A stretch of 37,421 nt of DNA from Christensenellales bacterium (GCA_050942555.1 JBMNNN010000003.1:1-37421); one strand, 5' to 3'. Shown: positions 9,424 to 28,512, counted from the stretch's first letter. Notes: generated from the letters alone by a model not told the origin. Program-made: numbers and translations.

Positions 9424-10938
9424 TCATTGACCGAAATCCCGCCGCGTGTACACCGGCTCCATCGCCTGCACGATCTGCCTGTACACGGCGAAACGCTCCT
9501 CGTAGAGCGCATGGGTGCGGGGATCAGGCTCGATGATCCGATCGATACGCACGCAGCGCTCCACCGCCTCCTCGGGGCCCGCGAACACGCCCGCGCATAC
9601 GCCGGCCAGCATCGCCGATCCGAAAGAGGAATCGTTGGCGCGGGGAAGCTGCAGCTCCATGCCCAGCACGTCGGCCGTGATCTGCCGCCAGACCGGGCTT
9701 TTGGACGCCCCGCCGATGAGACGCGCGTTCTCCACGCGGATACCCTGCTCGGTAAATACGCTCAGGCAGTCGCGCAGCGAGAAGGCGACGCCCTCCATGA
9801 CGGCCCGGCTGAAATGCGCCTTCGTGTGGCCGGCGCTGATGCCCGTGAAGCTGGCCCTCAGGTGCGGGTTGCGGTACGGCGTCAGCTCGCCCAGCAGGTA
9901 CGGATGGAAAAACAGCCCTTCGCAGCCCGGCGCGATGGTCGCGGCCGCCGCGCTGATGGCCTCGTATGCATCGGGCCCGCCGCGCGCTTCTTCGAGCTTC
10001 TCCAGCTCGCCGAACACATCGCGGTACCAGCGCATCGACGCGGCGCAGCTCTTTGTAGCCGAGCCGGGATACCACAGCCCCGGCACCACGTGCCTGTAGG
10101 TGACGAACATCGGATGCGGATGGGGCTGCCGCGTGATCGCGCAGATGCGTCCGGCCGTCGCAAGCTTTACGGTCGACTGCCCCTCGCGCACCGCGCCCGT
10201 TCCGAATACCTCCATCACGGTGTCGGTCGCTCCGGCCGCCACCAGCGTCCCCTCGGCAAGCCCGGTCTCGCGCGCGGCTTCCCGCGTCACTTTTCCCGCT
10301 TCGGCAAAGGGCGGAAGCGCTTCAGGAAGAACCGATGGATCCAGTCCCGCCAGCGCGCACAGCTCGGGGCTCCAGCGATCATTTGCCACGTCATAGAGCA
10401 TCGAGCCCGCCGCGTCGATCGTGTCGGTGCAGATCCGTCCGGTCAGCCGCCAGCGGATGTAGTCCTTGGCAAATAATATATGCCCGATGCGCTCAAACAC
10501 GTCGGGCTTGTGATTGCGTATCCACAGAAGCTGCGGAAGCGTCCAGAGCGTATCAGGCCGGTGATAGGTGACCTCGAAAAGCATATCTCCATACCGCTCG
10601 TCCAGCCAGGCGCTTTCCCGGACGCTGCGCTGGTCGGTCCACAGGATCGCGCGATCCAGCACCCGGCAGTCGCGGTCCATGAGCACCGCCGTATGGGTCG
10701 CGGCGTCCACCGCGATCGCGCGGATGTCCGACGACCGCACGCCTGACTTGCCCAGCAGGCTGGAGAGTCCCTCGCACACCGCGCGGTACCAGTCTTCGGG
10801 ATCCTGCTCGGTCCATGAGACCTCGGGATAATAGGTCGGATACTCGACCGTGGCCGATGCGACCGGTTGTCCCGACACGCTCAGCAGCGTTTCCTTGACG
10901 CCGCCCGAGCCGATATCGATGCCCAGCAAATACTCCAT
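9424..10938 (-). CDS. FGGY-family sugar kinase (xylulokinase-like)
   Basis: LLGIDIGSGGVK, EQDPEDW, ILWTDQRS, KDYIRWRLTG, PYLLGELTP, RAVMEGVAF; start MEYLL at 10938. Confidence 0.88.
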   Translation of the reverse strand: MEYLLGIDIGSGGVKETLLSVSGQPVASATVEYPTYYPEVSWTEQDPEDWYRAVCEGLSSLLGKSGVRSSDIRAIAVDAATHTAVLMDRDCRVLDRAILWTDQRSVRESAWLDERYGDMLFEVTYHRPDTLWTLPQLLWIRNHKPDVFERIGHILFAKDYIRWRLTGRICTDTIDAAGSMLYDVANDRWSPELCALAGLDPSVLPEALPPFAEAGKVTREAARETGLAEGTLVAAGATDTVMEVFGTGAVREGQSTVKLATAGRICAITRQPHPHPMFVTYRHVVPGLWYPGSATKSCAASMRWYRDVFGELEKLEEARGGPDAYEAISAAAATIAPGCEGLFFHPYLLGELTPYRNPHLRASFTGISAGHTKAHFSRAVMEGVAFSLRDCLSVFTEQGIRVENARLIGGASKSPVWRQITADVLGMELQLPRANDSSFGSAMLAGVCAGVFAGPEEAVERCVRIDRIIEPDPRTHALYEERFAVYRQIVQAMEPVYTRRDFGQ

Positions 10939-12796: not shown

Positions 12797-13876
12797 CTAC
12801 AGCGCGGCGCGCCCGATCACGTCGATGAGGGTCAGTACTTCCTGCCCGGTCTTGCCCGTGAGCAGCAGTGCGTCCTCGATATCGCCTGTCACCAGCGCCT
12901 GCGCGCCTGTTTCCGACGCTTCGGCGGCACGCCCGGCCACAAGCGCGGCCGACTCTGCCGGATACATCGCGGCCAGCAGCAGCCCGCCGGTCGTCCGGGC
13001 ACGGCTCCCGTGCCACTCCATCTCGGTCAGGGCTGCGCCCAGCTGGGAGAGCACGGCGCGGGGCTGATCGGTCATAGCGAGGTAACGGGCCATGATGTCG
13101 GAGTCGTGGTAGGTGACCGACAGATCCTTAGCGTTCACCTTGATGCTGCCGTCCTCCACCGCGTCCATCAGTATTATCACGACAGGCACGATACCAAAGT
13201 CGTTCTTGCAGCCGATTTCGTCGGATAGCAGTCCGAGTACGTACGCGTCCAGCGTCGACAGCGTCGCGATGGTCCGGACGCCTTTGGCCCCAGCCAGATC
13301 CAGCACCTGCCGGGCCACGCGCTGCGCGTCCTCACGAAAACCGAGCCGGTAGAGCTGCGCGAAGCCCGACGGCGCGCCCGCGACATAGGCGCACTGTATG
13401 CCCGCCCGGTCCATCAGCGCGGCGGCCTGCGTGAAATACCGCTCGATCTGTGCGTCGGGATACGCGCCTTTATAGAGCAGCACATTGGCGTCGCCGTTCT
13501 CGGCCGATGAAAGAACCTGCTGTCCCGGATCGGCGATCATCCCGTTTTTAAGCAGCGCGTCGCGAAGCGCTGTGATGTGCGCGGGTGCCAGTTCCCGTTC
13601 GACCATGTCGAAACGGGCCTCCTGCACGTACGCGGGCGGATTCCAGTTGCCCTCGCACCAGTCGGCGCAGTAGCCGCACATGCAGCACCTGTATACCGTA
13701 TCATCGAGATCCGCGCTGTAGGGAATCGTACCGCGGAGCACATAGGAAAGCATGAGTCCGCGGGACCGCGGGTTTACGACCTCGCTGCCCGTAACCCGGG
13801 CCATGCTGCATATATGCCGGCACATGAAGCAGAACCGGCAGCTATCAATATCCTTTTGAACCTTCTTGATGTTCAA
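12797..13876 (-). CDS. Fe-S oxidoreductase subunit (GlpC/GlcF/HdrD-like): two 4Fe-4S motifs plus degenerate CCG domains
   Basis: CRFCFMCRHIC, NPRSR, CCMCGYCADWC, then a CCG-type scaffold (VTYHDS). Start probably TTG 13876 (alternative GTG 13897). Confidence 0.8.
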   Translation of the reverse strand: MNIKKVQKDIDSCRFCFMCRHICSMARVTGSEVVNPRSRGLMLSYVLRGTIPYSADLDDTVYRCCMCGYCADWCEGNWNPPAYVQEARFDMVERELAPAHITALRDALLKNGMIADPGQQVLSSAENGDANVLLYKGAYPDAQIERYFTQAAALMDRAGIQCAYVAGAPSGFAQLYRLGFREDAQRVARQVLDLAGAKGVRTIATLSTLDAYVLGLLSDEIGCKNDFGIVPVVIILMDAVEDGSIKVNAKDLSVTYHDSDIMARYLAMTDQPRAVLSQLGAALTEMEWHGSRARTTGGLLLAAMYPAESAALVAGRAAEASETGAQALVTGDIEDALLLTGKTGQEVLTLIDVIGRAAL

Positions 13877-13893
13877 TGTATGTCCACCGCCTT

Positions 13894-15321
13894 TCACAGT
13901 CCAAGTTTACCGGGGTTCATAATGCCATCGGGGTCGAGTGACTTTTTGATCGTTTGCAGCACCTTGAATCCCGAGCCGTACATTTCCCGCATCGCGTAGC
14001 TGAGCTTGAGGCCGATGCCGTGGTGCTCGTTGAGCAGCGCGCCGTTGTCCACGGCGATGTGCATGCACTCGTTCCAGATTCTGTTGTAGAGACGGGTGGC
14101 CTCGTCAGGATCGGCCGGCACGTAGTCAGGATGGATGATGAAGCGGTCGTACATCATGCAGCCCCAGTCGTACCAGTGGGAGAAGTGGGCGATGAAATGC
14201 GTGCCCGGGAAGCTCTCGGCGTGCTCCTTCATCCGATAATAGATATTTTCGATCTTGTCATAGGTCGCGACGACGTCCATCGTGCCGAACGCCTCGGGCA
14301 GGTCCATGATATAGGGCGGGTAGTAGAACTTATAGCGGTTCTCCCACCAGCTCTCGCCGAGGCGCGGCCCCAGATCCTCGGTGGCCGTCTCGAGGCATAT
14401 TTCGGCGGCAATGCGCTCCTGTATCTCGACGATATCCTTGTAGCCGTCGAATCCGTATACGAGATACGCCCCGGTACGGTCGATGCCCAGCACCTTTTTG
14501 ATCTGGTGGACAGTCTCGTTCTCGTCGTACACACGGATGACCGCGGGCTGCAGGCGATTGACCATGATGCGGCGCCCCGCGTCGAGCGCGTCGTGGGTGT
14601 TGCGGAACATGAATGCGCGGAATTGCCGCTCCTCGGGTATCGGGAACAGCTTGATCGTGGCTTTCGTCATGATGCCCAGCGTACCCTCGGAACCCACGAA
14701 CAGCTGGTTGAGGTCGGGGCCCGACGAATGGCGCGGCACCGGGGGCGTCTCGATGATTTCGCCATTGGGCAGCACCGCCTCCAGCGAAATAATGAGATCC
14801 TCTATCTTGCCGTACTTCGTGGAAAGCGTGCCGGTCCCGCGGTGCGCAAGAAAGCCGCCCAGCGTCGAGCAGGATATCGAGGCCGGGAAATGCATCGTGG
14901 ACAGATTGTGGCGGTTCACCTCCCACTCGAGATCCTGGTGAATGATGCCGGTCTGCGCGGTGACCGAGTAGGCGAGCTCATTGACCTCGAGCACCTTGTT
15001 CATACGCTTCGTATCGAGTATGATGCCTCCCTGTGCGGGAAGCGCCCCGCCCTGGGAACCCGCGCCGCCTCCCCAGACGACGAGCGGCATTTTATAGTAT
15101 CCTGCGATACGGACGATCGCCGCGACCTGCTCGGTCGTCTCGGGGTAGACGATGAAGTCGGGCTGATGCGTCAGCCGGCCCCGGTCGGCCCAGACCCTTG
15201 GAACCCAGTAGTAGTCCACCGAATGGACGATTTTCTCGGCCTGACTGGTGTGGACATGCTCCTGCCCCACCACGTCGGCGAATTCCGAGAGAATCATACT
15301 TTGCATGTAATTCCTGTCCAT
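13894..15321 (-). CDS. FAD-linked oxidoreductase, VAO/GlcD family (alkyl-DHAP synthase/YgcU-like branch)
   Basis: WGGGAGSQGG, TLGGFLA, STKYGKIED, GSEGTLG, AHFSHWY, EHHGIG, LDPDGIMNPGKL. Confidence 0.87.
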   Translation of the reverse strand: MDRNYMQSMILSEFADVVGQEHVHTSQAEKIVHSVDYYWVPRVWADRGRLTHQPDFIVYPETTEQVAAIVRIAGYYKMPLVVWGGGAGSQGGALPAQGGIILDTKRMNKVLEVNELAYSVTAQTGIIHQDLEWEVNRHNLSTMHFPASISCSTLGGFLAHRGTGTLSTKYGKIEDLIISLEAVLPNGEIIETPPVPRHSSGPDLNQLFVGSEGTLGIMTKATIKLFPIPEERQFRAFMFRNTHDALDAGRRIMVNRLQPAVIRVYDENETVHQIKKVLGIDRTGAYLVYGFDGYKDIVEIQERIAAEICLETATEDLGPRLGESWWENRYKFYYPPYIMDLPEAFGTMDVVATYDKIENIYYRMKEHAESFPGTHFIAHFSHWYDWGCMMYDRFIIHPDYVPADPDEATRLYNRIWNECMHIAVDNGALLNEHHGIGLKLSYAMREMYGSGFKVLQTIKKSLDPDGIMNPGKLGL

Positions 15322-15342: not shown

Positions 15343-16191
15343 TTAATACTTCGTCTTTTCCAGCGCTTTTTCGATGCTTTGCATGGTGTCGAGCGCCTGA
15401 TCCTCGCGGTGGATGCTGACCCAGATATAGAGCGCGTCGATGAGCGCGAGCTGCGCGATGCGCGACGAGAGCGACAGCACGCGGTATTTGACTTCCTCCG
15501 ACGCCGTGAAAAGCGCATAGTCAGCCACCCGGGTGATCGGCGATTTCCCGTATGTGCACATGCATACCGTCGCCGCGCCCCGCTCGCGGGCCACCGCCAG
15601 CGCGTCCACGACGCACCGCGAGCTGCCCGAATGGGATATGCCGACGGCCACGTCGCCGGGCCGCATCGTCGCCGCGTGAATCTGCTGCATGTGCGAATCG
15701 GTGTGCGCCGCGCTTTCGATGCCGGCGCGCACCATCTTGTGCGCCGCGTCCAGCGCGACCGAAGCGGAATTGCCGCTGCCGAAGAAATATACCTTGCGCG
15801 CCGCGCTGATGAGCTCGGCCACGGCCTGGAGGCTTTTTTGATCCAGCACGCGCTTCGTATAGTCGAGGGTTCCCACGATGCTGCCGATTTCCTTGCTGAA
15901 TATGTCGGCCGCCGAGTCCTCCTTGGATGCCTCCTCGAATATCCGCTCAATCGGGTCATTGATCTCCTGCGCAAGGGAGATCTTGAAGTCCTGGTATCCG
16001 TTAAACCCCAGCTTCTTGCAGAAGCGCACGATCGTAGCCTCGGCGGTGTCGCAGTTCTCGGCGAACTCGACGATGGACAGCCGGATGATATCCCGCGCGT
16101 TGGCGCGGATATAATCGGCGATCTTATGGTCCGACGCGCTGAATATATGCTCGAGCGAATCCATTCTGTACAGGATTGCGGATTTCTCCAT
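15343..16191 (-). CDS. MurR/RpiR-family transcriptional regulator (HTH + SIS)
   Basis: EATIVRFCKKLGFNGYQDFK, FFGSGNS, ISHSG, SRIAQL; start MEKS after GGAGG. Confidence 0.92.
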   Translation of the reverse strand: MEKSAILYRMDSLEHIFSASDHKIADYIRANARDIIRLSIVEFAENCDTAEATIVRFCKKLGFNGYQDFKISLAQEINDPIERIFEEASKEDSAADIFSKEIGSIVGTLDYTKRVLDQKSLQAVAELISAARKVYFFGSGNSASVALDAAHKMVRAGIESAAHTDSHMQQIHAATMRPGDVAVGISHSGSSRCVVDALAVARERGAATVCMCTYGKSPITRVADYALFTASEEVKYRVLSLSSRIAQLALIDALYIWVSIHREDQALDTMQSIEKALEKTKY

Positions 16192-16232
16192 CGTCTCCCT
16201 CCTTTGACCGCGCATAGCGTTCCGCCTGTATG

Positions 16233-16294
16233 ATGATAGCATATATGAACATGTTTTTCAATATATCAATCGATAATCATGAAAATTATTTTTA
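16233..16294 (-). promoter_or_regulatory. sigmaA promoter of the rpiR operon with two palindromic operator candidates
   Basis: TTGAAA-17 nt-TATCAT (16261 to 16233). Imperfect palindromes TGAACATGTTTTTCA (16246-16260, overlapping -35) and TGAAAATTATTTTTA (16280-16294). Confidence 0.7.
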
Positions 16295-16408
16295 TGCCGG
16301 ACAGCCTGGGAGCCGGAATTTACCGGTTTCCCACACAATCCAAATATTTACGTACGATTCTTTTCACAGGAACGTGACGAAACCGGAATACTATTCAATG
16401 GACGGGTA

Positions 16409-16417
16409 TGCTATAAT
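16409..16417 (+). promoter_or_regulatory. Extended -10 promoter element for the plus-strand lipoprotein
   Basis: TGcTATAAT about 32 nt upstream of the GTG start. Confidence 0.55.
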
Positions 16418-16449
16418 GTCTATATTCCAGTTGCAGGAAGGGAACCGCT

Positions 16450-17628
16450 GTGAAAAAGATCATTCCGTCGCTAATCGTCATGCTGGCCGTCGCCATTTTT
16501 TCGGGATGCGCCCCGCGCGTCGCCGATCCGGCGCTGTTCGGGCAGTGGGATCTCATCGGGGGAACCGGCAGCGAACGCCTGGTCATCGAGGAGGACGGCG
16601 GCGCATTCTTTGACGACGAGGCTGTCAAATGGGAGATTACCGATGCGGGTACGCTGGAAATAGCCGACTCGGCGCGCAGGAAGAAAACCTATCGGTACGC
16701 GGTGGAGGGCGCGTTGCTGACGCTGACCGCAGAAAGCGGGCAGGACGCGCGCTACGTGCATCCCGACCAGTTTCCCGGGGATGCTGCCCAGCATGAGCAG
16801 CTCGCCGGGCTGTGGACCGATGAGGGCGGACGCCTGACGCTGTATTTCGAGGCGGACGGCGACGGGACCCGCTACGGATGGGTCGAGGAGCCCGACGCGG
16901 GCTTCACCTATGCGGCCGCCGACGGGAGGATGCGCATGACGTTCCACGGCGGAGCCGGGCAGTGGGTGCAGTACGCGTTCGCGGCCGACGGCACCCTCGA
17001 GGTGCTCTTCGAGCATGCGCCCGACGGCGGACAGGCCAACCGCACCCTGTGGAAGCAGGCCGACTCGGGACGCATACGGGGCGACTACCAGGTACTGTGC
17101 GACAATCCCCCGTCGGAGGACGGCCCGGGCATCGGGAAAATCTCGTTCGACGGACAGGGCGGCTGCGCGATCGACAACGTATACGGAAGCTACCAGCTCT
17201 TTGAAAACAATGTCGTCATCATAAACGCCCGCGGCACGCACCTGTCGCTCGCGACCGCAAGTCCCGTGGAGGGTTTCCTGACGCTCGGCGAAACAGGACT
17301 TGACCACGAATACGTCGCGGTGCGCGAGGATCCGGCGCTTGCCAATCCCGCCGCGCTCGAGTCGCTGGCCGGAATATGGTCGGACGCGGACGGCTCGCAC
17401 ATGCTGCAAATCTCGCCCGGCATCATAAGCCGCGTCGTCTGGGATGACTTCGAGGGCCAGGTAAACCTGACCGTGGTGGGCGGCTTCCTGCGGGCCGAGC
17501 CTGCCGGGGAGATGGGCGACCCATTCTATCTGTGCTATAAAAAGGTGGGCGCGGTGCTCTATGTCGCAAAAAGCGCCGCGTATCCGGAAGGATACGAGAG
17601 CTGGATTCCGCTGGAGAAGCTCTACTAA
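16450..17628 (+). CDS. Lipoprotein of unknown function with about four repeated beta-rich domains
   Basis: Signal MKKII...FSGC; recurring L/I-x-G-x-W/Y domain starts (LFGQW, LAGLW, IRGDY, LAGIW). Confidence 0.8.
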   Translation: MKKIIPSLIVMLAVAIFSGCAPRVADPALFGQWDLIGGTGSERLVIEEDGGAFFDDEAVKWEITDAGTLEIADSARRKKTYRYAVEGALLTLTAESGQDARYVHPDQFPGDAAQHEQLAGLWTDEGGRLTLYFEADGDGTRYGWVEEPDAGFTYAAADGRMRMTFHGGAGQWVQYAFAADGTLEVLFEHAPDGGQANRTLWKQADSGRIRGDYQVLCDNPPSEDGPGIGKISFDGQGGCAIDNVYGSYQLFENNVVIINARGTHLSLATASPVEGFLTLGETGLDHEYVAVREDPALANPAALESLAGIWSDADGSHMLQISPGIISRVVWDDFEGQVNLTVVGGFLRAEPAGEMGDPFYLCYKKVGAVLYVAKSAAYPEGYESWIPLEKLY

Positions 17629-20091: not shown

Positions 20092-20661
20092 CTAAATAAG
20101 CACGTCGTCGAGCGTGCGCTTGCGCACCCGGTGCCGCCCGGTCTCGTCCCGGTAATAGCGCACATCTCCGTCGGGCGCGTCCTCGAAAACAGCCGCTTCG
20201 CCCGCGTATCCGAGCGCCAGCAGCGTGTCCAGCGCGTAGCGCTCGGGATCCAGCCCCTCCGCCGCCAGTATCGCTTCGCGGTCTATCGCACCCATCCAGC
20301 AGCAGCCGACGCCGTGTCCGGTCGCCAGCAGCTGTATCGTCTGCGCCGCCGCGCCCGCATCGTGCGCGCAGCCGCCGGGCGCGACAGCCCTGTCTACGAG
20401 CAGCAGTATAAAGGCCGTCGGCCGCTCTCCGGGAGCCGGCGTCCCCTGCGGCCCCAGCAGCGCCGCCCACCGGGTCAGCGGGAAAACCCGCTCTACCCGC
20501 GCCGGGTCGTCTATGATGCGGTACCGGAGCGGCTGCCGGTTGGACGCCGACGGCGACAGCCGCGCGCAGTCCACCCAGTCCACGAGCAGCGCCCGGTCGA
20601 TCGGTTTCTGCGAAAACCTGCGGACGGTACGCCTTTTGCGCACCGCTTCCCGAATATCCAT
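20092..20661 (-). CDS. Nitroreductase family protein
   Basis: RRTVRRF, ARLSPSASNRQP, DAGAAAQ, GVGCCWMG, LALGY; start MDIREA after GGAGG. Confidence 0.9.
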   Translation of the reverse strand: MDIREAVRKRRTVRRFSQKPIDRALLVDWVDCARLSPSASNRQPLRYRIIDDPARVERVFPLTRWAALLGPQGTPAPGERPTAFILLLVDRAVAPGGCAHDAGAAAQTIQLLATGHGVGCCWMGAIDREAILAAEGLDPERYALDTLLALGYAGEAAVFEDAPDGDVRYYRDETGRHRVRKRTLDDVLI

Positions 20662-20672
20662 ACGAATTCCTC

Positions 20673-21710
20673 CTATCGCCAGTCGATGGTGCGAAGCTCT
20701 TGCGCGCTCACGCCCCGCTGGAGCAGCCAGCGCCGCATCTCGGCGGGCGGGGTCGTGTGCCCCCTGAGCAGCGCGGCCCGTCCCTCGAAATGAAGCCCCG
20801 TCGCGCAGGCCGGCACGACGAAGCTGTCGCCCGCCTTGACGTCGAATCCGCGTCCGGGATCGCTGCATCGCACGCTGCCGATTCCCGACGCAACCGACCA
20901 AACCGAGAAGCCGCCAGGTCCATGGTCGATAAAAGTCCCGTCCGCGTCGATGCGCTCCAGCGCGAAGTGCCGGTTGCAAATAAGCAGGGTCCGCGCCGCG
21001 CCCGCCTCGGGCAGCGTCAGACCCGTGCGGCGCACGAAGCCCGCGTCCCAGTCGATGACCCGCAGCGCCTGCTGTGTGTGCAGGGCACGAGGCCTGCCAG
21101 TGTCCCCGTCTATCCGGTCCCAGTCGTATACGCGGTACGTCGTGTCCGACGACTGCTGTATCTCGTATACCGTCACGTTCGGGCCCAGCGCGTGCACCGT
21201 GCCGGCCGGGATATTGACGACATCCCCGGCCCTGACGGGCAGCCAGCCAAGCGCGTCACGCAGCGTCCCGCCCGCAAGAGCCGCCTCGAACGCCTCCCGG
21301 CCACCGCGCACGCCGTATACGATGCGGCCATCCTCGGGCGCATCGATTACCACCCAGGCTTCGGCCTTGCCCGCTTCCCCCTCGGCCGCGCTGCCGTCTG
21401 CCGGATGCACCTGCACCGACAACCACTGGGACGGGCCGATGAACTTGACAAGCAGCGGGAATCCCGTCCCGGACACCGCCCCGCCGTAGAAGTGCTCGCC
21501 CATCCGCGCGATATATTCGCTAAACGGTAGCCCTGAAGCCGGACCGTCCATCACCACCGACTCAAAGCCGGGACGATCGGAAACCTCCCAGCTCTCCCCC
21601 GCCTTTTCACCGCCGGGCTTCCCCAGCAATCGGCCCAGCGCGTCCCCGCCCCAGAGCTTGGGTAACACGACCGGCCGCATGCGTACCGGAAATCGATCAA
21701 ACGCCGCCAT
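20673..21710 (-). CDS. manA: Mannose-6-phosphate isomerase, class I (short Firmicute type)
   Basis: LWGG, GESWEVS, FPLLVKF, LSVQVHP, GKAEAW, PAGTVHA, EIQQSSDTTYRVYDW; extended -10 TGgTATAAT just upstream. Confidence 0.88.
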   Translation of the reverse strand: MAAFDRFPVRMRPVVLPKLWGGDALGRLLGKPGGEKAGESWEVSDRPGFESVVMDGPASGLPFSEYIARMGEHFYGGAVSGTGFPLLVKFIGPSQWLSVQVHPADGSAAEGEAGKAEAWVVIDAPEDGRIVYGVRGGREAFEAALAGGTLRDALGWLPVRAGDVVNIPAGTVHALGPNVTVYEIQQSSDTTYRVYDWDRIDGDTGRPRALHTQQALRVIDWDAGFVRRTGLTLPEAGAARTLLICNRHFALERIDADGTFIDHGPGGFSVWSVASGIGSVRCSDPGRGFDVKAGDSFVVPACATGLHFEGRAALLRGHTTPPAEMRRWLLQRGVSAQELRTIDWR

Positions 21711-21826
21711 TTGCGCCTCCATTCCTGCCTATTATACCAAATTGGGGGATGGGGCAAAAGGGGGTGATGCAAGATAACCCTCACGAACATGAGATGCCGG
21801 GCCGAATCAGGTATAGAGCGCCTTAT

Positions 21827-22966
21827 TTAATACACCTTCTCGGTTTTATAAAGCGAGCGGTCCTTGTACATCGAATAGGGCTTGCCCATATCCCGGTACT
21901 GCGAGTCCGAGGAGATGTCGACCGTATACCATCCTCCGTCCACATAGATCTGGTTCCAGGCATGGTATCCGTTGACATTGTCGCAGTAGCCGTAGTTGAC
22001 CGATACGTGAATTCCGTTGCCCCGCAGCATGCTCGCATAGAGAACCGCGAAATCGAGGCATATCCCCTTCTTCACCGAAAACGTGGTTTCCGGATCCGAG
22101 TAATACCCCGGCGGCAGCGACCCCAGCTTGTCAAAGTCGTACTTCACGTTGGCGACGATCCACTGGTATACCGCTTCGGCCTTTTGCTTCTCGGTGGACT
22201 TGCCGCTCATCAGCGTAGCGGCGTGCTTCACGCATGCCATGCCCGAATTCCAGCTCACGACCGAATTGGACTGCAGGTATTTTGCGTATGGATCCTCGAC
22301 CGCTACCGTCACCGTCTGGGAGGTCACGAACGCGTAGCTCGATCCCGATATATTCCGGAAAAGGCTGATCGTATAGGTGCCCGCCCCTTCGGTGATCGGG
22401 AACTTATGATACATGCCGTCGCTTGGCACGTCGTAGTACGCGGTTTTCCCGCCGTCCTTCTTGATGCCGATCTTGATGCGGGCCGATTCGTTGCAGGCTG
22501 CCCGGACATACTCGTCGTTCGCGGTGCTGGTATCCAGCACCGGAGCGCCCCCGGGCTGCACGACGAGATCGGGCGCTGCGGTGGGTGCGGCGGTCGGTTT
22601 GGGTGTCGTAGGGGCCGTGGTCACGGCGGTCGGCCTGGGCGTCGGGCGGGCCGTCGCCGCAGCGGTCGGCCTGGACGTCGTTTTCCCGGGAGTCCCCGCG
22701 GACAGCCCGGGCGTGCCGGTGGGCGCGGCGGTTTTGCCGGTCGTGATCCCGGCTGTCGGGGCGGGCGTTCCGGCAGACGGCATCGGGGTCGCCTCTGCGC
22801 TATACGCTGCCCGCGGCACCCGCGTCGCGGTGGACCCGGGTTCCGATGAAACCGGTTCGGCCGTAACCATACGCCAGGTGAAGCGCACACCGCAGGAGAC
22901 GCTGCACAGCATGACTGCGGTCATGAGCGCGATAGCGAGTATGGTCGCAAGAGCCTTGCGCGTCAT
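21827..22966 (-). CDS. Exported transglutaminase-like (Cys-His-Asp) domain protein with long Thr/Pro/Ala linker
   Basis: Signal peptide ending CSVSC (possible lipobox), ~90-aa T/P/A linker, small beta domain, then GICLDFA / YHAWNQIY / VDIS triad motifs. Confidence 0.85.
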   Translation of the reverse strand: MTRKALATILAIALMTAVMLCSVSCGVRFTWRMVTAEPVSSEPGSTATRVPRAAYSAEATPMPSAGTPAPTAGITTGKTAAPTGTPGLSAGTPGKTTSRPTAAATARPTPRPTAVTTAPTTPKPTAAPTAAPDLVVQPGGAPVLDTSTANDEYVRAACNESARIKIGIKKDGGKTAYYDVPSDGMYHKFPITEGAGTYTISLFRNISGSSYAFVTSQTVTVAVEDPYAKYLQSNSVVSWNSGMACVKHAATLMSGKSTEKQKAEAVYQWIVANVKYDFDKLGSLPPGYYSDPETTFSVKKGICLDFAVLYASMLRGNGIHVSVNYGYCDNVNGYHAWNQIYVDGGWYTVDISSDSQYRDMGKPYSMYKDRSLYKTEKVY

Positions 22967-23023
22967 CGGATGTCCTTTTCCTTTCCTATTTCTCCGGCCA
23001 GATTCCATTCTCTATGGCGGGCA

Positions 23024-23761
23024 TCAGCCCACTACGCCGTCAAAGGAACTGCCGGTGTGCCCGGAGACCGTCATGGGCACCTGACTCACGTTCCAGCGAA
23101 CGATCAAAAAGCGGGAGAAGCCGGACTCCGGCACAAAGCGCACCGAGAAACGCCAGTTGTCCCCATCTTCCAGTTCGGCGGATATTGCGGGGGGCAGGAC
23201 ATCGAGCACGCCGTGCAGCCGCAGGTCGCCGGGCATGTCCCCGGAGGACTGGGTGAACGACACCGTCAGATCGCCCCGCGCGGGAAGCGCTGTGTCGGGA
23301 TCAAGAATCCCGGCCGGGTTCGTTCCGGCGATCGTCAGGCCCTCTCTGGCGGCGATCCGCGAAAGTCCCTCGGCGGCATAGTACCAGTAAAGCCGGGTAA
23401 AAAGCGTCTCCGCCGCGCTTACGCGCTGGGCCCCGGTCCGCGCGCCGTCGGCCTCTCTGAGAAAATTCTCAGGCACGGTGGATGGCGCGATCCCCTCGGG
23501 CAGTTTGCCCTGCGCGAAATAACCGTCGGTAAAATAGGCGAGCGCCTTTTCCTGTGCCGCAAGAAGCACGGCGTCGATGCGCGCCGTTTTATACTCGGCA
23601 AGCCGGTCCTGTTCGTAATACTGCTCGGTCCAGGACACGTTCTTCATCGCGAGCTTCCGGTTGATCCAGCTGGATGTGACCGCAATGCCCGCAAACGTCG
23701 CCAGCACGATGATGACCAGTATGACCAGCACTGACGTAGAGCCCTTCTCATTTGCGATCAT
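23024..23761 (-). CDS. Pilin-like protein, PilX/GspK/ComGG type (no Glu5)
   Basis: MIANEKG|STSVLVILVIIVLATF: class III signal peptide-like start lacking E5; ATGA overlap with the upstream gene. Confidence 0.72.
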   Translation of the reverse strand: MIANEKGSTSVLVILVIIVLATFAGIAVTSSWINRKLAMKNVSWTEQYYEQDRLAEYKTARIDAVLLAAQEKALAYFTDGYFAQGKLPEGIAPSTVPENFLREADGARTGAQRVSAAETLFTRLYWYYAAEGLSRIAAREGLTIAGTNPAGILDPDTALPARGDLTVSFTQSSGDMPGDLRLHGVLDVLPPAISAELEDGDNWRFSVRFVPESGFSRFLIVRWNVSQVPMTVSGHTGSSFDGVVG

Positions 23762-24222
23762 GGCCGGGCCTCCTCCCGGGGCGCGCCGAAGTACCGTGCG
23801 GCGCGGATGTGCACGAGCTCCTCGGATATGCCCCCCGCGCTCACGCTCACCACGCGCACGCGCAGGTCCGCGCATCCGGGCGCGTCCTCTCCCGAATCGC
23901 CGATCCAGGCGCTCAATACGAGCGCCGCTCCCTCGGGCTCCGACGGATTCCACTCCGCGTCGAAGTACTGGCTGGTACTGCCCCCCGGGGTATACGGCTC
24001 CCCGGCCAGCTCCCGCCAGAATGCGTCGGGCGACTGGGCTACCTTGAAGCGCGAAACGATCTCGCTGGCGCGCTCCAGCGCCTTGTCGGTGTCCGACGTG
24101 CTTTGGCTGACCTGGCGCGACAGCACAAAAAGCTGCATGATGAAGCCGCCCAGCACCGCCATCGCGGCGACCGCGACGATCACCTCTACCAGCGTAAAGC
24201 CTCCTGTCGGTCTGCGGTTCAT
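23758..24222 (-). CDS. Type IV prepilin-like protein (minor pilin, PilV/GspI-like)
   Basis: MNRRPTGG|FTLVEVIVAVAAMAVL canonical N-methylation motif; ATGA overlap. Confidence 0.85.
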   Translation of the reverse strand: MNRRPTGGFTLVEVIVAVAAMAVLGGFIMQLFVLSRQVSQSTSDTDKALERASEIVSRFKVAQSPDAFWRELAGEPYTPGGSTSQYFDAEWNPSEPEGAALVLSAWIGDSGEDAPGCADLRVRVVSVSAGGISEELVHIRAARYFGAPREEARP

Positions 24223-24743
24223 GGCGTCGCCCCCTCCTGTACCGTCCTGAGCGGAATGAGGCGCGTCACGGTTTGTGTGCGTCCCGACCGGACATAGGGG
24301 ACCGTCACGCGGATCGACCGCCCGCCGTCCTCGACCGCCACATCGAATCCGTCCAGCCTGAGTATGTCGAAGCAGTATTCGCGCACGGGCTGCGCGTCGC
24401 CCACCCCGTAGAATTCCAGCAGCATCCCGTCGTCCCAGAAAATCCATATGTCGTAATCCCCGGCCGGGCCTCCGCCCGCGATGCGCAGCGCATTGCCCTC
24501 GCCCAGCGGGTTGGGCACCACCGCGATCGCTCCCTCCCGGTCGTTCTGGCAGATGCGGTTCTGAATGTAGGCGATCGCCACCCGCGCGTCCGACTGGGAC
24601 TCGAAGTTTTCGGTGACGCGCTTATAGGCGCTGTCTCCCGCCTGCACCAGCGAAAAGGCCATAAATCCGAATATGCTGAATATCACGATGATCATCAGCG
24701 GCTCCACCAGCGAGAAGCCCCGGTTGTCGGCCAGCTTTTTCAT
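24219..24743 (-). CDS. Type IV prepilin-like protein (PilW/GspJ/ComGF-like; resembles DUF4860)
   Basis: MKKLADNRG|FSLVEPLMIIVIF; RVAIAYIQNRICQND helix; ATGA overlap. Confidence 0.8.
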   Translation of the reverse strand: MKKLADNRGFSLVEPLMIIVIFSIFGFMAFSLVQAGDSAYKRVTENFESQSDARVAIAYIQNRICQNDREGAIAVVPNPLGEGNALRIAGGGPAGDYDIWIFWDDGMLLEFYGVGDAQPVREYCFDILRLDGFDVAVEDGGRSIRVTVPYVRSGRTQTVTRLIPLRTVQEGATP

Positions 24744-25048
24744 CTCGCCACCACCCATACCTCGGGCCGCAGGTTGCCGCCATTATACTGATACCGGTAG
24801 AAAAAAAGCTCCTCGTCGAGTACGATGCCGTAATTCTCCACCAGATACGATAGATCCGGAGGGTACTCGCCCTCCAGCGCGTAGCACTGCGAAAGGGCCC
24901 GGTTGATGCTGGTCGCGAGCGTCTCCGCCCGCCACAGACCGGTCCGTGCCCATGTATTATCGAGCAGCGGCACGATCGAGGCCACCATGACCGCCATCGC
25001 GGCCAGTATCAGCACAGCCGCAATCAGCCGCACGCGCACAGCTCTCAC
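24740..25048 (-). CDS. Small pilin/GspG-like membrane-anchored protein without prepilin cleavage motif
   Basis: N-terminal hydrophobic helix, long amphipathic helix, then CYALEGEYPPDLSYL, reminiscent of the GspG-type Y...GxYP...L motif; GTG start after a GGGGG RBS. Confidence 0.7.
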   Translation of the reverse strand: MRAVRVRLIAAVLILAAMAVMVASIVPLLDNTWARTGLWRAETLATSINRALSQCYALEGEYPPDLSYLVENYGIVLDEELFFYRYQYNGGNLRPEVWVVAR

Positions 25049-25060
25049 AGCGCTACCCCC

Positions 25061-26257
25061 TTATCCTATGACCGACATGATATTGATGAGCGGCATCATG
25101 ACCGACAGGAGTATGATCCCGACGATGACCGAAAGTACGAAAATCAGCACCGGTTCGATGATCGTGGTCAGCCGCCGCAGCGTGCGGTCCACCTCGTCGT
25201 CGTAGAAACCGGCCGATTTCATCAGCATCTTTCCCGTGCGCCCGGTACGCTCTCCCACCACCAGCATCCGCAGCAGCATCGGCATGAATACGCCGATACC
25301 CCGGATCGAGGATGCAAGCGTCTGTCCGGAGGCCACCTGCTCGCGGCTTTTTTCGAGGCGCCGCTCGACCCATGCGTTTCCTATCAGGTTGTCCATACGG
25401 CTAAGCGCCAGCGCCATCGGTACGCCGCTCTCAAGCAGTATCGCCAGGCTGCGCGCGAAGCGGGCTGTCACCACCCGGCTGAAAAAGGCGCCGATTCCCG
25501 GCAGATGCACCTTCAGATAGTCGATAAGGTACCGCCCGCGGCGCGTTCCCGAGAACCAGATGAACAGCACGACGAGCACGGCGAGCGCCATAGCCAGTAT
25601 CAGCACATAGCGCACGACGAAATCGCTGAGCGCGAGTAGCCCGCGCGTGATCGCGGGAAGCTCTCCTCCCATCGAGGTGAGCATGCTCTCGAACATCGGC
25701 ATGATGCGAACCACAAGAAGGCCGATGACCCATATCATGAGCACGGTCAGCATCGACGGATACAGCGTGGCCGTACGCATTTTGTGGCGGATCTCGTTCT
25801 CCTTCTCATAGTAGTCGGCCATCTGGCTGAACACGACATCCAGCGACCCGCTGTCCTCTCCCACGCCCACCATGTGGATGAGGTAGGAGGGAAAAACGTC
25901 GGTATGGCGCTGCATCGCCTCGGATAGCGTCTTGCCGCTCGATAAGCTTTCGTACATCGAGTGCATCGCCAGGCGGAGGCGCATGTTTCCCGTCTGCTCC
26001 TCCAGCATGATCATGCCGTCGGTGAGCGGTATGTCGGAATTGATCACCGCATACAGCTGTCTGCACATGACCGCGATATCGAGCGCCGAGACACCGGGCG
26101 ACAGCGTTAGTTTGAGCCGCGATACCCTGGAGATCCGGTCTATCCGGTAGCCCCGGGACCTGACGCTCGACCGGGCCGCTTCTTCGTCGCTCGCTTCCAG
26201 CACACCGGCGACCGGATCGCCGAGCTGGTTAACGCCGCGGTATGAATAGTATGGCAT
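25061..26257 (-). CDS. pilC: Type IV pilus / T2SS platform protein (PilC/GspF/ComGB family)
   Basis: MPYYSYRG...G.LEA N-terminus; two GspF repeats (VGEDSGSLD, VGERTGRT); ATLYPS, IIEPVLI, VMMPL. Confidence 0.92.
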   Translation of the reverse strand: MPYYSYRGVNQLGDPVAGVLEASDEEAARSSVRSRGYRIDRISRVSRLKLTLSPGVSALDIAVMCRQLYAVINSDIPLTDGMIMLEEQTGNMRLRLAMHSMYESLSSGKTLSEAMQRHTDVFPSYLIHMVGVGEDSGSLDVVFSQMADYYEKENEIRHKMRTATLYPSMLTVLMIWVIGLLVVRIMPMFESMLTSMGGELPAITRGLLALSDFVVRYVLILAMALAVLVVLFIWFSGTRRGRYLIDYLKVHLPGIGAFFSRVVTARFARSLAILLESGVPMALALSRMDNLIGNAWVERRLEKSREQVASGQTLASSIRGIGVFMPMLLRMLVVGERTGRTGKMLMKSAGFYDDEVDRTLRRLTTIIEPVLIFVLSVIVGIILLSVMMPLINIMSVIG

Positions 26258-26315
26258 GATAACCCCTCACTTCCTTTATGCCGCAGGGCTGTTTTCCATA
26301 TATATGCAGTACCAA

Positions 26316-26345
26316 TAACCCGTTTCTCCGCGAATGAAACAGGTT
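26316..26345 (-). terminator. Hairpin after the lgt operon, possible terminator
   Basis: Minus strand AACCTGTTTC-ATTCGCGGA-GAAACGGGTT with only a weak T tail. Confidence 0.4.
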
Positions 26346-26359
26346 GCTGCGAATTGATG

Positions 26360-26866
26360 CTAGCTGCCTTTATGGCCTCCGCCCCGAATAAGCTGCCTTG
26401 CTACCAGGAACACGCCCAGCAGTATCAGAAGGACGGCTGCGAATATCTCGTGCGTCATATCGGTGAAATGCCGCACCAGAAAGAACCCGCCCACTCCGGT
26501 CAGTATGACGACCGGTATCCACGAGCCGTCCCGTCCGCCGCTGAAGATTTTCAGCTCCGCAAGACCCAGCGCCGGCCCCAGCAGGAAGAGCGGCCACAGC
26601 ACGCGCATCTCACCCCAGCCCCGGATCGCGCAGTAAAGGAACAGTCCCCCATAAACGAGCAATATGCCACCGGGCACCAGGAGGCCCGGGTTGCGGGGCG
26701 AATGTGCAAAGGCAATGATATGAAACAGAAGCGCCAGCGTAATAAGCGCGATGGGCCACCAGACTCTCCCCCACGCCAGCGGCAGTATGCCCTGCTGATC
26801 GAGTATCATCATGACGCCCAGCAGGACCAATATGATTCCCCAGAAGAAACTCGCTGTTTTCTTCAT
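26360..26866 (-). CDS. Integral membrane protein (LiaF/LiaI-TM, DUF5668-like)
   Basis: About 6 TM helices; FWGIILVLLG and repeated WWPIALI / LWPLFLL motifs. Confidence 0.75.
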   Translation of the reverse strand: MKKTASFFWGIILVLLGVMMILDQQGILPLAWGRVWWPIALITLALLFHIIAFAHSPRNPGLLVPGGILLVYGGLFLYCAIRGWGEMRVLWPLFLLGPALGLAELKIFSGGRDGSWIPVVILTGVGGFFLVRHFTDMTHEIFAAVLLILLGVFLVARQLIRGGGHKGS

Positions 26867-26902
26867 AATCCGACTCCTCTCCCCTGTCGTGCCGGGCGGG
26901 GA

Positions 26903-28048
26903 CTACGGCTTGTCCTCTCCCCCGTTTTCGGCTTCCTGTGCGGTCTCGCCCTGGCTTTCGTCAGCCGGTTCACCGGTCTCCCCACCGGTCTGTTCCGGCT
27001 CTTCGCTCTGTGCCGGACTTTCTCCGGCGTCTCCTGCGTACCCGGTGTCCCCGGCGTCTCCGGTGTCCTCTGCGTCCGCTGCGTCCTGCTCCGAGCCGCC
27101 GTCAGCGGGCTGCGCTTCCCCTTCGGTCTCGGCGGTCAGATTCCGCCGGTGCTCCTTGCGCACCAGCACCAGATTGGGATCGATCTCATCCATATCCGGC
27201 GAAGCGCCGACTTCGTCGCCGGACGCGGGCTTCCTGTCGCCCATGTTCCGGAATATGAGCGCCGCCACCGAGCCCACGATCAAAATCGCGCTCAGTACCT
27301 GGGATACCCTCAGGTTCGTCCCCGGAATATACAGGCTGTCGGTGCGCATGGGCTCTATGAACACCCGGCCCAGTCCGTAGAGCGCCAGATACATCAGGAA
27401 CACGTTCCCGGGCCTGGCGTCCTTTTTCCTGTGCAGATACAGATACAAAACGATAAATACAAGCAGGTTCCACAGGGATTCATAGAAGAACGTCGCCATG
27501 AAGTAGGCGCCTCTGGCCTCGATGTAGACGCTTGCCGGGAAGAAATGGAACGCAGGATTGCTGATCTCGTATCCATAGGCTTCCTGGTTGACGAAGTTTC
27601 CCCAGCGGCCGATGGCCTGTCCCAGTATAAGGCTGGGCGCGAGTATATCGCACAGCCCGGTAAATGATACCTTCCGCCACCGGGAATAGATGAGTATCCC
27701 GATAAGCCCGCCTATCACGGCCCCGTATATCGCCAGACCGCCCTCCCAGACGGCCACGATATTCAGAAGCGTCCTGTACCAGACTTCGCCACGGAAATAC
27801 TGGTCCCACATGAACGCGACATAATAAAGGCGCGCCCCGATGATCGCGAAGGGGACGGTGACGAGCACCAGGTCCAGCACGACGTCCGAGTTGAACTTCC
27901 GATACTTCGCGTTGTGCATGGCCAGCAGTATTCCCGCCAGCAGCGCGGCGGCTATGATCACGCCGTACCAGTAAATTGGCTTTGTGAACTCTCCCAGGCG
28001 GATTGTAAATGCTACCGGATCCACCGTGAATTTCGAAGCGTCAAACAA
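26903..28048 (-). CDS. lgt: Prolipoprotein diacylglyceryl transferase with acidic C-terminal tail
   Basis: IYWYG, GARLYYV, WEGGLAIYG, GQAIGRWGNFVNQEAYG, YES, R.FIE..R. Start probably TTG 28048 after AGGAGG (ORF track GTG 28057). Confidence 0.95.
   Translation of the reverse strand: MFDASKFTVDPVAFTIRLGEFTKPIYWYGVIIAAALLAGILLAMHNAKYRKFNSDVVLDLVLVTVPFAIIGARLYYVAFMWDQYFRGEVWYRTLLNIVAVWEGGLAIYGAVIGGLIGILIYSRWRKVSFTGLCDILAPSLILGQAIGRWGNFVNQEAYGYEISNPAFHFFPASVYIEARGAYFMATFFYESLWNLLVFIVLYLYLHRKKDARPGNVFLMYLALYGLGRVFIEPMRTDSLYIPGTNLRVSQVLSAILIVGSVAALIFRNMGDRKPASGDEVGASPDMDEIDPNLVLVRKEHRRNLTAETEGEAQPADGGSEQDAADAEDTGDAGDTGYAGDAGESPAQSEEPEQTGGETGEPADESQGETAQEAENGGEDKP
27022..27084. repeat. Seven degenerate 9-bp tandem repeats in the lgt tail
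   Basis: ctccggcgt ctcctgcgt acccggtgt ccccggcgt ctccggtgt cctctgcgt ccgctgcgt, encoding D-A/T-G-like triplets. Confidence 0.75.
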
Positions 28049-28167
28049 ACGATCCACCTCCTGGATTTAAAATCCTATGCCCAAAAGGGCTCCGACCGGT
28101 TTTCTATGATATTCCACTTCTTTATTTCGCCATACGATCCCAAAATCCTTCGAACGGAGCGCATAAC

Positions 28168-28251
28168 ATAAAACACCCGAACTGAGGCTGCTGCCCCGCT
28201 CCGGGTGTTTCGGTCCTGATTCCGCCGGGCAACGGGCGGATTTCTCCGCCC
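28168..28251 (-). terminator. Two stem-loops downstream of the small lipoprotein; the distal one is terminator-like
   Basis: GGGCGGA-GAAA-TCCGCCC, then AAACACCCGG...TCGGGTGTTT followed by TATGTT. Confidence 0.6.
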
Positions 28252-28269: not shown

Positions 28270-28512
28270 TTACGTCGATTTGGGTGTTGTAGTCGCCGCT
28301 CCTGTCGTTCCGGGCGACGGCGACGCGGCTTCTGGCGTGGGAGTCACCATCGGAGTCACAGCCGCAGTCGGTGTAGCTGCCGGCGTCACCACGGGCGCTA
28401 TCGTTACTCGAGGGGTCGGTGAGGGCGTCGTAGTCGGCTGGGGAGCTCGGCACCCCACCAGTGCCAGCAACAGGCACACGATGATAACCGCTATCCACGT
28501 TTTCGATCTCAA
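28270..28512 (-). CDS. Small Thr/Pro/Ala-rich lipoprotein (80 aa)
   Basis: AAGGAGG RBS, TTG start, signal peptide with lipobox LVGC (Cys21), low-complexity mature part. Confidence 0.8.
   Translation of the reverse strand: MRSKTWIAVIIVCLLLALVGCRAPQPTTTPSPTPRVTIAPVVTPAATPTAAVTPMVTPTPEAASPSPGTTGAATTTPKST

Follow-up and report, generated by a model that had tools for sequence, protein, structure and literature searches.

The locus described here raises the question of whether a gene cluster with a type IV filament platform and pilin-like proteins, and no ATPase of its own, is a machine in its own right, and if so what drives it. The window, meaning the whole stretch of DNA that was analysed, is 37,421 nucleotides (nt) from a Christensenellales bacterium (GCA_050942555.1 JBMNNN010000003.1:1-37421). 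The cluster consists of six closely packed minus-strand open reading frames (ORFs) at 21827-26257, encoding a PilC platform protein, the small protein p102, a DUF4860 pilin-like protein, the pilin-like proteins pil154 and p245, and a transglutaminase (TGase)-like protein (Table 1). The genome of the window is named G000 and its sister genome G001, both of genus g1; g6 is a second genus of the same family. The cluster belongs to what is apparently a distinct, unnamed, and undescribed type IV filament module of Clostridia, in which the absence of an ATPase gene is a derived feature of the window's own family.

The distribution of the module was determined by a Pfam search for DUF4860 in 400 evenly drawn Clostridia genomes and 14 control genomes. 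This survey was used in place of a pattern search of genome contigs with a DUF4860 alignment, which recovered four genomes only, its patterns being too specific. DUF4860 was found in 35 of the 400 Clostridia genomes (about 9%), one copy each, in about a dozen families, and in none of the 14 controls. Module carriers include Lachnospiraceae-type and anaerobic-digester organisms. Up to 20 kb was fetched around the 34 foreign hits and annotated with hidden Markov models from the g1 and g6 proteins, and all-against-all protein clustering was performed on 39 loci, namely these 34 from other Clostridia families and five from g1 and g6. The neighborhood of DUF4860 is a conserved module in these 39 loci: PilC is present in 39/39, p102 and DUF4860 in 38/39 each, p245 in 36/39 (two clusters, 26 + 10), pil154 in 35/39, a short PilT-like ATPase in 29/39, and the TGase in 18/39. 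No other gene family is common to more than 10 of the 39 loci, apart from two clusters of short ORFs, present in 24 loci (median 92 aa) and 17 loci (median 134 aa), which are apparently spurious frames overlapping module genes. Within the window's family, all six genes recur in unchanged order at 82-94% identity in G001, where the TGase gene is cut by a contig end. Three g6 genomes keep the same genes and order at 25-48% identity, with different flanks and a guanine-cytosine (GC) content of 38% against 62%. One genome that was DUF4860-negative by Pfam holds DUF4860-like and pil154-like ORFs at 1327-2285 of locus L081 (G375:C122), 7-8 kb from a TGase orthologue, so the frequency of 35/400 is a floor. 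In G268, only a weak PilC and p102 remain.

The window PilC is an inner-membrane platform protein of the PilC/GspF/TadB type and the sole T2SSF gene detected in G000. Its scores lie below all the NCBIfam equivalog cut-offs considered: 304.6 against 424 for GspF, 278.7 and 249.2 against 700 for PilC, and 130.3 against 240 for ComGB. A tree of 46 PilC proteins was built by a quick search with support from the Shimodaira-Hasegawa-like approximate likelihood ratio test (SH-aLRT), without bootstrap or external references. The module PilCs, 38 rows, group in a single clade (SH-aLRT 99) to which none of the eight canonical PilCs of the same genomes belongs. Loci L055-L057 branch first, and the window and g6 proteins (SH-aLRT 99) are sister to the other 31 rows. 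Under its equivalog cut-off and in a separate clade, the window PilC is not an orthologue of the PilC of canonical type IVa pili (T4aP). The protein is about 400 aa long, with a full N-terminus, in the window, g6, L056, and L057, and about 350 aa in the other module PilCs; the 31 PilCs of the derived clade with the shortened N-terminus nearly all adjoin a PilT of their own. Because the PilC clade is separate and the TGase linkage is conserved across genera and families, the proposal of the sequence-only reading that this is a distinct filament module stands.

The second half of that proposal, that the module lacks an ATPase, was not upheld. Of the 34 loci that come from other Clostridia families, 29 have a PilT-family ATPase adjoining the module, and the absence seen in the window does not characterize the module family. 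All six module-linked ATPases tested scored 409-460 bits with TIGR01420 PilT/PilU (cut-off 319), compared with 129.5-144.7 bits with ComGA (cut-off 300) and 118-144 with PilB. Walker A, Walker B, the His box, and an AIRNLIRE-like motif, a PilT signature, are kept in 29/29 module-side ATPases aligned. In a tree of 51 ATPases, the module-side proteins fall in the PilT clade and outside the PilB clade, and the sole PilT of g1 and g6 is that of their canonical pilus locus. PilB stands beside the module only in the basal L055-L057 among the 39 loci, where the order is PilB-PilT-PilC-prepilin p102-DUF4860.

The PilT gene is absent in all five g1 and g6 module loci. Other module loci without an adjacent PilT are those of G137 and G373 (each with a PilT at a distance of about 39 kb), L047 (cut off by its contig end), L058, which is a remote hit, and G417. 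In the last of these (locus L042, G417:C71, about 8747-8806), only the final 20 PilT residues are left, after p245, and they are 85% identical to the PilT of a neighbor species; this motor loss is independent and recent. Since PilT is missing only in g1, g6, and scattered loci, the ATPase-less state is a derived and repeated loss, not the nature of the module: it is derived in the window's family, and G417 lost the gene separately.

A long PilB was found somewhere in 22 of the 34 other module genomes (5/5 plus 17/29, one split), and no PilB was found in the remaining 12, which include G104, G320, and G325, all three with the PilT-only form; completeness reaches at least 99% in nine of the 12. 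The ATPases of about 410-430 aa in the PilB-less genomes were considered as short PilBs and rejected: 4/4 tested are TadA-family, with TIGR03819 as the best match at 275-300 bits, below its 373-bit cut-off. The A24 peptidases of the PilB-less genomes are short and lie beside Tad-like loci, and G134 has none. In five PilB-less genomes checked, there is no strong T2SSF protein with two domains besides the module PilC. With no PilB, a TadA-type identity for the other T2SSE proteins, and one strong T2SSF protein, the PilT-type ATPase is the only candidate motor for the module platform in these genomes.

Pfam scans of 29 window ORFs found no T2SSE, A24 peptidase, or PilM, in line with the earlier observation that the locus lacks an ATPase, PilD, and PilM. 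Local misassembly is not the cause of the missing ATPase, because contigs of three other public DNA runs bridge both the PilC-LiaF-lgt and the manA-TGase-p245 junctions; these contigs span all 30 bins of 20500-28200. A further run, X20 (share 0.10), guessed to be RNA, gave three short identical contigs and was flagged as probably DNA. The missing functions are found elsewhere in G000, which is 91.7% complete in 233 contigs. Its only T2SSE match is a long PilB truncated by the contig end, right where contig C105 starts; its only A24 prepilin peptidase (PilD) is cut by the end of contig C203 and has two pilins and a pair of large PilX-like genes after it; and PilM is on contig C35. PilT, PilC2, and the major pilin went unassembled in this genome. 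In G001, contig C105 carries PilB, PilT (351 aa), and the first 85 residues of PilC2 before it ends. The complete g6 chromosomes G013 and G006 have the locus PilB-PilT-PilC2-PilA-PilD-two pilins-two PilX-like-PilM, the PilM call being made by sequence inspection and not by a family scan, at 78-93 kb from the orthologue of the window cluster. Across g1 and g6, the canonical T4aP locus is complete, with a PilA of 120 aa, and there is only one PilB and one PilT. The lineage thus has an ordinary T4aP, fragmented over contig ends in G000, and the window cluster is a second, separate set. In G000, ATPase and peptidase must be supplied in trans, as had been suggested, and the noted absence of such genes at the locus was correct; the genome itself has no shortage of pilus machinery. 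In both g1 genomes, the canonical locus is broken at contig ends inside PilB, PilC2, and PilD, and breaks falling inside pilus genes in both genomes suggest strain variation or repeats at that locus.

The ratio of nonsynonymous to synonymous substitution rates (dN/dS) was compared between the module and its flanks. Between G000 and G001, it is 0.14 for PilC, 0.145 for p102, 0.09 for DUF4860, 0.28 for pil154, and 0.25 for p245, against 0.15 for lgt and 0.18 for LiaF in the flanks. In g6, the values are 0.044 for PilC and 0.038 for p102. The module genes are under purifying selection and are not decaying.

The protein in the position of the major pilin is p102. Its N-terminus has neither Gly-1 nor Glu5 in the window and in most derived loci. 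In the basal L055-L057, its homologues carry the canonical prepilin signal G↓FTLIE (arrow, cleavage site). The C-terminal motif CYAxEGxYPxxLxYL is the most conserved signature of the module, and C55, Y56, E59, G60, Y62, P63, Y73, and P95 are invariant in 24 sequences. The AlphaFold2 (AF2) model, with a predicted local distance difference test score (pLDDT) of 93.8, has a 58-residue N-terminal helix, a short helix, and a hairpin. The best match by VIA-align is the pilin 6xxd (T. thermophilus PilA4), with Z 8.3 over 95/102 residues and a root-mean-square deviation of 2.6. Pilins and pseudopilins make up eight of the top ten matches, including PulG (Z 6.0), and head-only matches were obtained with the Shewanella pilin 4d40 (Z 5.7) and EpsG (Z 5.2); for a model made up largely of helix, these Z values are middling. 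Foldseek gave no match to the model at E ≤ 0.001, so the pilin assignment draws on VIA-align and on the homologues with prepilin signals. The modelled p102 has the type IV pilin fold, and the protein is pilin-derived. With Gly-1 and Glu5 both missing, cleavage by PilD cannot be expected. At least 1198 clusters of p102 homologues are present in a large (metagenome) protein collection; among the 120 clusters listed, the named ones are all 'hypothetical' and none has a Pfam domain. A complex prediction of p102 with the three other pilin-like proteins scored 0.58 and one control scored 0.46, so the prediction was not used as evidence for or against. In p102, the Gln that neighbors the invariant Cys came into question as a transglutaminase donor site; the idea was dropped, since this Gln is not conserved (His in g6).

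The DUF4860 protein scores above the Pfam gathering threshold, and it and pil154 have a class III signal peptide (G-1, a hydrophobic residue at +1, and Glu5; Table 1), which p102 lacks. In addition to its Pfam match, pil154 scores 18.9 bits with TIGR02532 (cut-off 16.3), and its E13 is invariant in 19 sequences. No family match in Pfam or NCBIfam was found for p245; its N-terminal block G↓STSVLV is conserved in 16 sequences, and this N-terminus without Glu5 is the pattern of capping subunits of the GspK/PilX/ComGG type. Sequence searches of the PDB with DUF4860, p102, and p245 profiles returned only marginal N-terminal-helix or chance matches. The sequence-only reading had counted four pilin-like genes; the pilin fold holds for all four, but only three have a class III signal peptide, p102 having no G-1 or E5. 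In several PilB-less lineages, the signals of the DUF4860, pil154, and p245 homologues are degenerate. In loci L025-L033 and L037 (families f46, f70, f45, f73, and f92), no Gly-Phe is present at the cleavage site, and the four genomes checked of those lineages (G104, G271, G320, and G325) have short TadV-like A24 peptidases only. The subunits of these loci may be unprocessed.

At its N-terminus, the TGase-like protein carries a hydrophobic helix or anchor; next come about 100 aa of disordered linker rich in Pro and Thr, then a beta-sandwich (residues 143-221), and last the TGase core. Cys303, His335, and Asp350 are invariant in 16/16 module-linked sequences, which share the plan of N-terminal anchor, variable linker, beta-sandwich, and core. 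Some relatives have clear lipoboxes and others anchors; the window copy has a hydrophobic helix. In the AF2 model, pLDDT is 81-98 per 10-residue block over residues 141-379, and the linker of about 100 residues is disordered. Foldseek gave 61 PDB matches at E ≤ 0.001, with TGase-like enzymes first (3isr, 1.2e-08), and these include 4xz7, 9crn, TG2, TG3, factor XIII, LapG, TgpA, and the pseudomurein endoisopeptidase PeiP. By sequence, the match to 3isr is marginal (E 0.0033). The protein is a predicted cysteine enzyme of transglutaminase-like type, extracytoplasmic and tethered to the membrane. Run X12 has a linker of another length: 3 bases are omitted at 22676, and between 22758 and 22750 there are 33 other letters. 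The length of the tether thus seems to vary between strains.

The TGase adjoins the module in 18/39 loci, in several genera and families and in an upstream, divergent, or downstream position; its linkage in other genomes, on which the earlier proposal depended, is conserved. The orthologue subfamily (profile A4, E ≤ 1e-40) was found in 53/399 Clostridia-class genomes, namely in 32/35 DUF4860-positive and 21/~364 DUF4860-negative genomes, an association that is overstated by the kinship of the genomes. TGase orthologues lie directly beside PilB-PilT-PilC loci, and not next to the derived module, in G395 (C1:2617254-2618228), in L057 at 15703-16500 (G348), and in L078 at 9695-10492 (G136), and for this reason the link may be to Clostridia type IV pili in general. 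The link with the module is recurrent and probably functional, and it is not obligatory. The suggestion that the TGase is released cargo or a filament-tip subunit fits poorly with the N-terminal membrane anchor and with the stand-alone orthologues in genomes without the module.

The layout of the cluster agrees with what had been noted from the sequence. The ATGA overlaps at 24743-24740 (p102/DUF4860), 24222-24219 (DUF4860/pil154), and 23761-23758 (pil154/p245) match exactly, and the gap between the p245 stop (23024) and the TGase ATG (22966) is 57 nt, as stated. A GGAAAGGAAAAGGA stretch precedes this gap. No minus-strand terminator site was found in the 57-nt gap by a scan whose total of 6, against 5.0 +/- 1.9 in shuffles, makes it uninformative; promoter and terminator counts overall were no higher than in shuffles. 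The flanking genes encode Lgt (PF01790, 4.4e-71), a membrane protein of the LiaF-TM type, and a type-I phosphomannose isomerase with a weak match (27.8 bits). Other large ORFs of the window encode sugar kinases, an aldolase, MurB, CofD, RapZ, and similar proteins by Pfam. Immediately upstream of lgt, an ORF of 80 aa combines LVGC, which resembles a lipobox, with a tail rich in Pro and Thr. Two further ORFs, of 366 and 392 aa, match no Pfam family at E ≤ 1e-5, and the latter overlaps a 312-aa ORF on the opposite strand.

Table 1 Genes of the module and other ORFs of the window mentioned in the text; positions are counted from the first letter of the window, and arrows mark the cleavage site.
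Feature	Position	Strand	Length (aa)	Family match	N-terminal motif
PilC/GspF-type platform	25061-26257	-	398	Pfam T2SSF, 2.4e-50, two domains	
p102, small bitopic protein	24740-25048	-	102	no Pfam/NCBIfam family	
DUF4860 pilin-like protein	24219-24743	-	174	PF16152, 1.2e-12, 48.1 bits (cut-off 25)	NRG↓FSLVE
pil154, classical minor-pilin-like protein	23758-24222	-	154	N_methyl, 1.6e-05, 24.7 bits (cut-off 21.2)	GG↓FTLVE
p245, pilin-like protein, no Glu5	23024-23761	-	245	no family	KG↓STSVLVILVII
Transglutaminase-like protein	21827-22966	-	379	Transglut_core PF01841, 5.4e-21, 75.3 bits (cut-off 23)	
ORF immediately upstream of lgt	28270-28512	-	80		
ORF	12797-13897	-	366	no Pfam family at E ≤ 1e-5	
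ORF	16450-17628	+	392	no Pfam family at E ≤ 1e-5	

The module was compared with known systems. The excerpts used here define a generic system of the type IV filament superfamily by an ATPase, an inner-membrane platform, plus a major pilin, all within a single cluster (Denise et al. 2019, PMC6668835). They give the T4aP of monoderm Clostridia as PilB-PilT-PilC-PilA-PilD-PilMNO (PMC6916266) and describe the competence pseudopilus comG operon of Bacilli (PMC3244431). The window cluster has the platform; it encodes no T2SSE-family ATPase, and its protein in the major-pilin position lacks the class III signal. Shared with T4aP are the two-domain PilC, subunits with class III signal peptides, and, in the window's relatives, a PilT-family ATPase. 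In contrast to T4aP, the module has no PilB, PilM/N/O, or PilD of its own, the product of its first pilin gene is uncleavable, its PilC forms a separate clade, and a TGase-fold enzyme recurs. PilB and PilM/N/O are not in the locus and are not conserved beside any of the 39 loci, except for PilB in L055-L057. Since these basal loci are ordinary-looking PilB-PilT-PilC-pilin loci, the module descends from T4aP.

With ComG, the module shares a compact monoderm operon without PilMNO and, in family f61, the order ATPase, platform, pilin of about 100 aa, and three pilin-like genes, the last without Glu5, a layout that recalls the gene order and sizes of comGA-GG and the order of the gsp operon. It differs in that its ATPase is PilT-family and not ComGA (130-145 against 300), its PilC scores 130 against 240 for ComGB, and its small pilin is uncleavable. 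An identity with ComG was considered from the gene order and rejected on the NCBIfam ComGA and ComGB scores; as both are under cut-off, the resemblance is one of architecture, not orthology. The type II secretion system (T2SS) resembles the module in its platform, in a short pseudopilin set ending in a subunit without Glu5, and in the alignment of the p102 model to PulG and EpsG. The module differs from it in the lack of GspE, GspL/M, and a secretin, in a GspF score of 304.6 against 424, and in having no further conserved genes beside it. The TGase has the Cys-His-Asp core fold of the TGase-like cysteine proteases and isopeptidases (3isr, TgpA, LapG, PeiP, and the streptococcal 4xz7 and 9crn) and, like eukaryotic transglutaminases, a beta-sandwich ahead of the core. 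It differs from those TGase-like enzymes in that sequence similarity to them is marginal, and none was found reported beside type IV filament genes in the literature searched.

That literature does not mention DUF4860, and no description of a PilT-only system or of a TGase partner was found in it, outside supplements that may list such loci as 'generic' or pil operons. The excerpts of PMC3244431, PMC6916266, and PMC6668835 treat pil, com, and tad operons and 'generic' systems, and these excerpts contain no PilT-only module or TGase partner.

We incline, by a modest degree of confidence, to the view that the window cluster is a working accessory pseudopilus module whose motor and peptidase are borrowed in trans in this lineage. 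PilD from contig C203 would cleave the three subunits with G↓F...E motifs. The cleaved subunits would assemble on the module PilC into a short pseudopilus or priming complex, with p245 as the cap. Energy would be supplied in trans by the canonical PilB and/or PilT. This supply in trans fits the N-terminus of the window PilC, kept at about 400 aa, and the shortening of the PilT-flanked derived PilCs to about 350 aa. The uncleaved p102 would stay in the membrane as a pilin-fold subunit at the base. On its long flexible linker, the TGase most likely works at the outer face of the membrane, where it would cut or cross-link wall peptides or pilins and so let the structure cross, or be fixed in, the thick wall.

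Several points weigh against this view. Docking of PilB or PilT on the module PilC is a supposition. A true filament may never form, because the module has no canonical major pilin and p102 has no G-1 or E5. G417 has lost its ATPase too, with no PilB or PilT at E ≤ 1e-30, and with only a PilT remnant there, some ATPase-less copies may be on their way out. A PilT paralogue of the module type could sit in unassembled G000 DNA, yet the complete g6 chromosomes have none. As for the TGase, it is not adjacent to the module in 21/39 loci, 21 genomes hold its subfamily without detectable DUF4860, and 18/20 TGase loci away from the module have no filament gene within the fetched stretch.

The cluster might instead be an alternative platform with a minor-pilin tip or priming set that decorates the canonical T4aP filament and builds no machine of its own. 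Myxococcus has multiple minor-pilin/PilY1 clusters of a comparable kind. The complete T4aP locus of g1 and g6, with its classical PilA, one PilB, and one PilT, would suit this role, as would the module's lack of a cleavable major pilin and the TGase orthologues beside canonical-type PilB-PilT-PilC loci. We nevertheless consider it unlikely, for the module keeps its own PilC, in a dedicated clade and under purifying selection. Moreover, no PilB was found in 12/34 module genomes, and where the module PilC is also the sole strong T2SSF protein, as in the five checked, the module is no accessory of a canonical pilus. A Gram-positive piston resembling T2SS, in which folded proteins are driven through the wall by a short pseudopilus, with the TGase as its cargo or released by it, is improbable in our judgment. 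It would account for the parallel with the gsp and comG operons in the order ATPase, platform, small pilin, and three minor pilins (the last without Glu5) and for the adjacent TGase in 18/39 loci, and a C. perfringens preprint reports that a monoderm secretes a folded protein in a pilin-dependent way (PMC11580942). The TGase is tethered, by its N-terminal hydrophobic helix here and by lipoboxes or anchors in relatives, and not free, and its loci away from the module are nearly always without filament genes, as given above. PilT-family motors, furthermore, are known for retraction and not for extension.

Least probable of all, and hardly to be expected, is a decaying remnant whose function was lost in this lineage after the loss of PilT. 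The cognate ATPase is missing in all five g1 and g6 loci, G417 shows a fresh PilT deletion with its 20-aa remnant, and G268 retains little of the module, as such a history would predict. The six frames are nevertheless intact in two genera that are 52-75% apart in protein sequence and 24 GC points apart. For the five module genes compared, dN/dS (0.09-0.28) is on a par with that of the housekeeping genes in the flanks and is lower still in g6 PilC and p102, and the catalytic triad and pilin motifs are retained. The working accessory module with functions borrowed in trans is the reading that we carry forward.

Beyond the window, we put forward tentatively, as a possibility short of an even chance, that the Clostridia hold a class of type IV filament machine driven by a PilT-family ATPase alone, with no PilB in the genome. 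Its parts would be a dedicated PilC, an uncleavable p102 derived from the major pilin and retained in the membrane, three short pseudopilins, and a wall-acting enzyme of the TGase fold. To our knowledge, the type IV filament classes are each thought to need an assembly ATPase of the PilB, GspE, ComGA, or TadA type. The module, in about 9% of the sampled Clostridia, pairs a dedicated platform with a PilT-family ATPase or with none, except in the basal L055-L057. More surprising than the absence of an ATPase in the window is that the only dedicated motor of the family is PilT and that many carriers have no PilB. If this proposal is true, a 'retraction' motor drives assembly or a piston-like cycle across a thick wall. 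The window would then be the extreme form, in which even PilT is outsourced to the canonical pilus, and one PilB/PilT pair would serve two platform proteins. Since the carriers include Lachnospiraceae-type and anaerobic-digester organisms, cultivable hosts probably exist. If the module builds anything, it bears on extension by PilT, on the sharing of a motor by two platforms, and on the crossing of the thick wall of monoderms, and its recurrent TGase-fold partner is a testable candidate for an accessory in wall remodelling or cross-linking.

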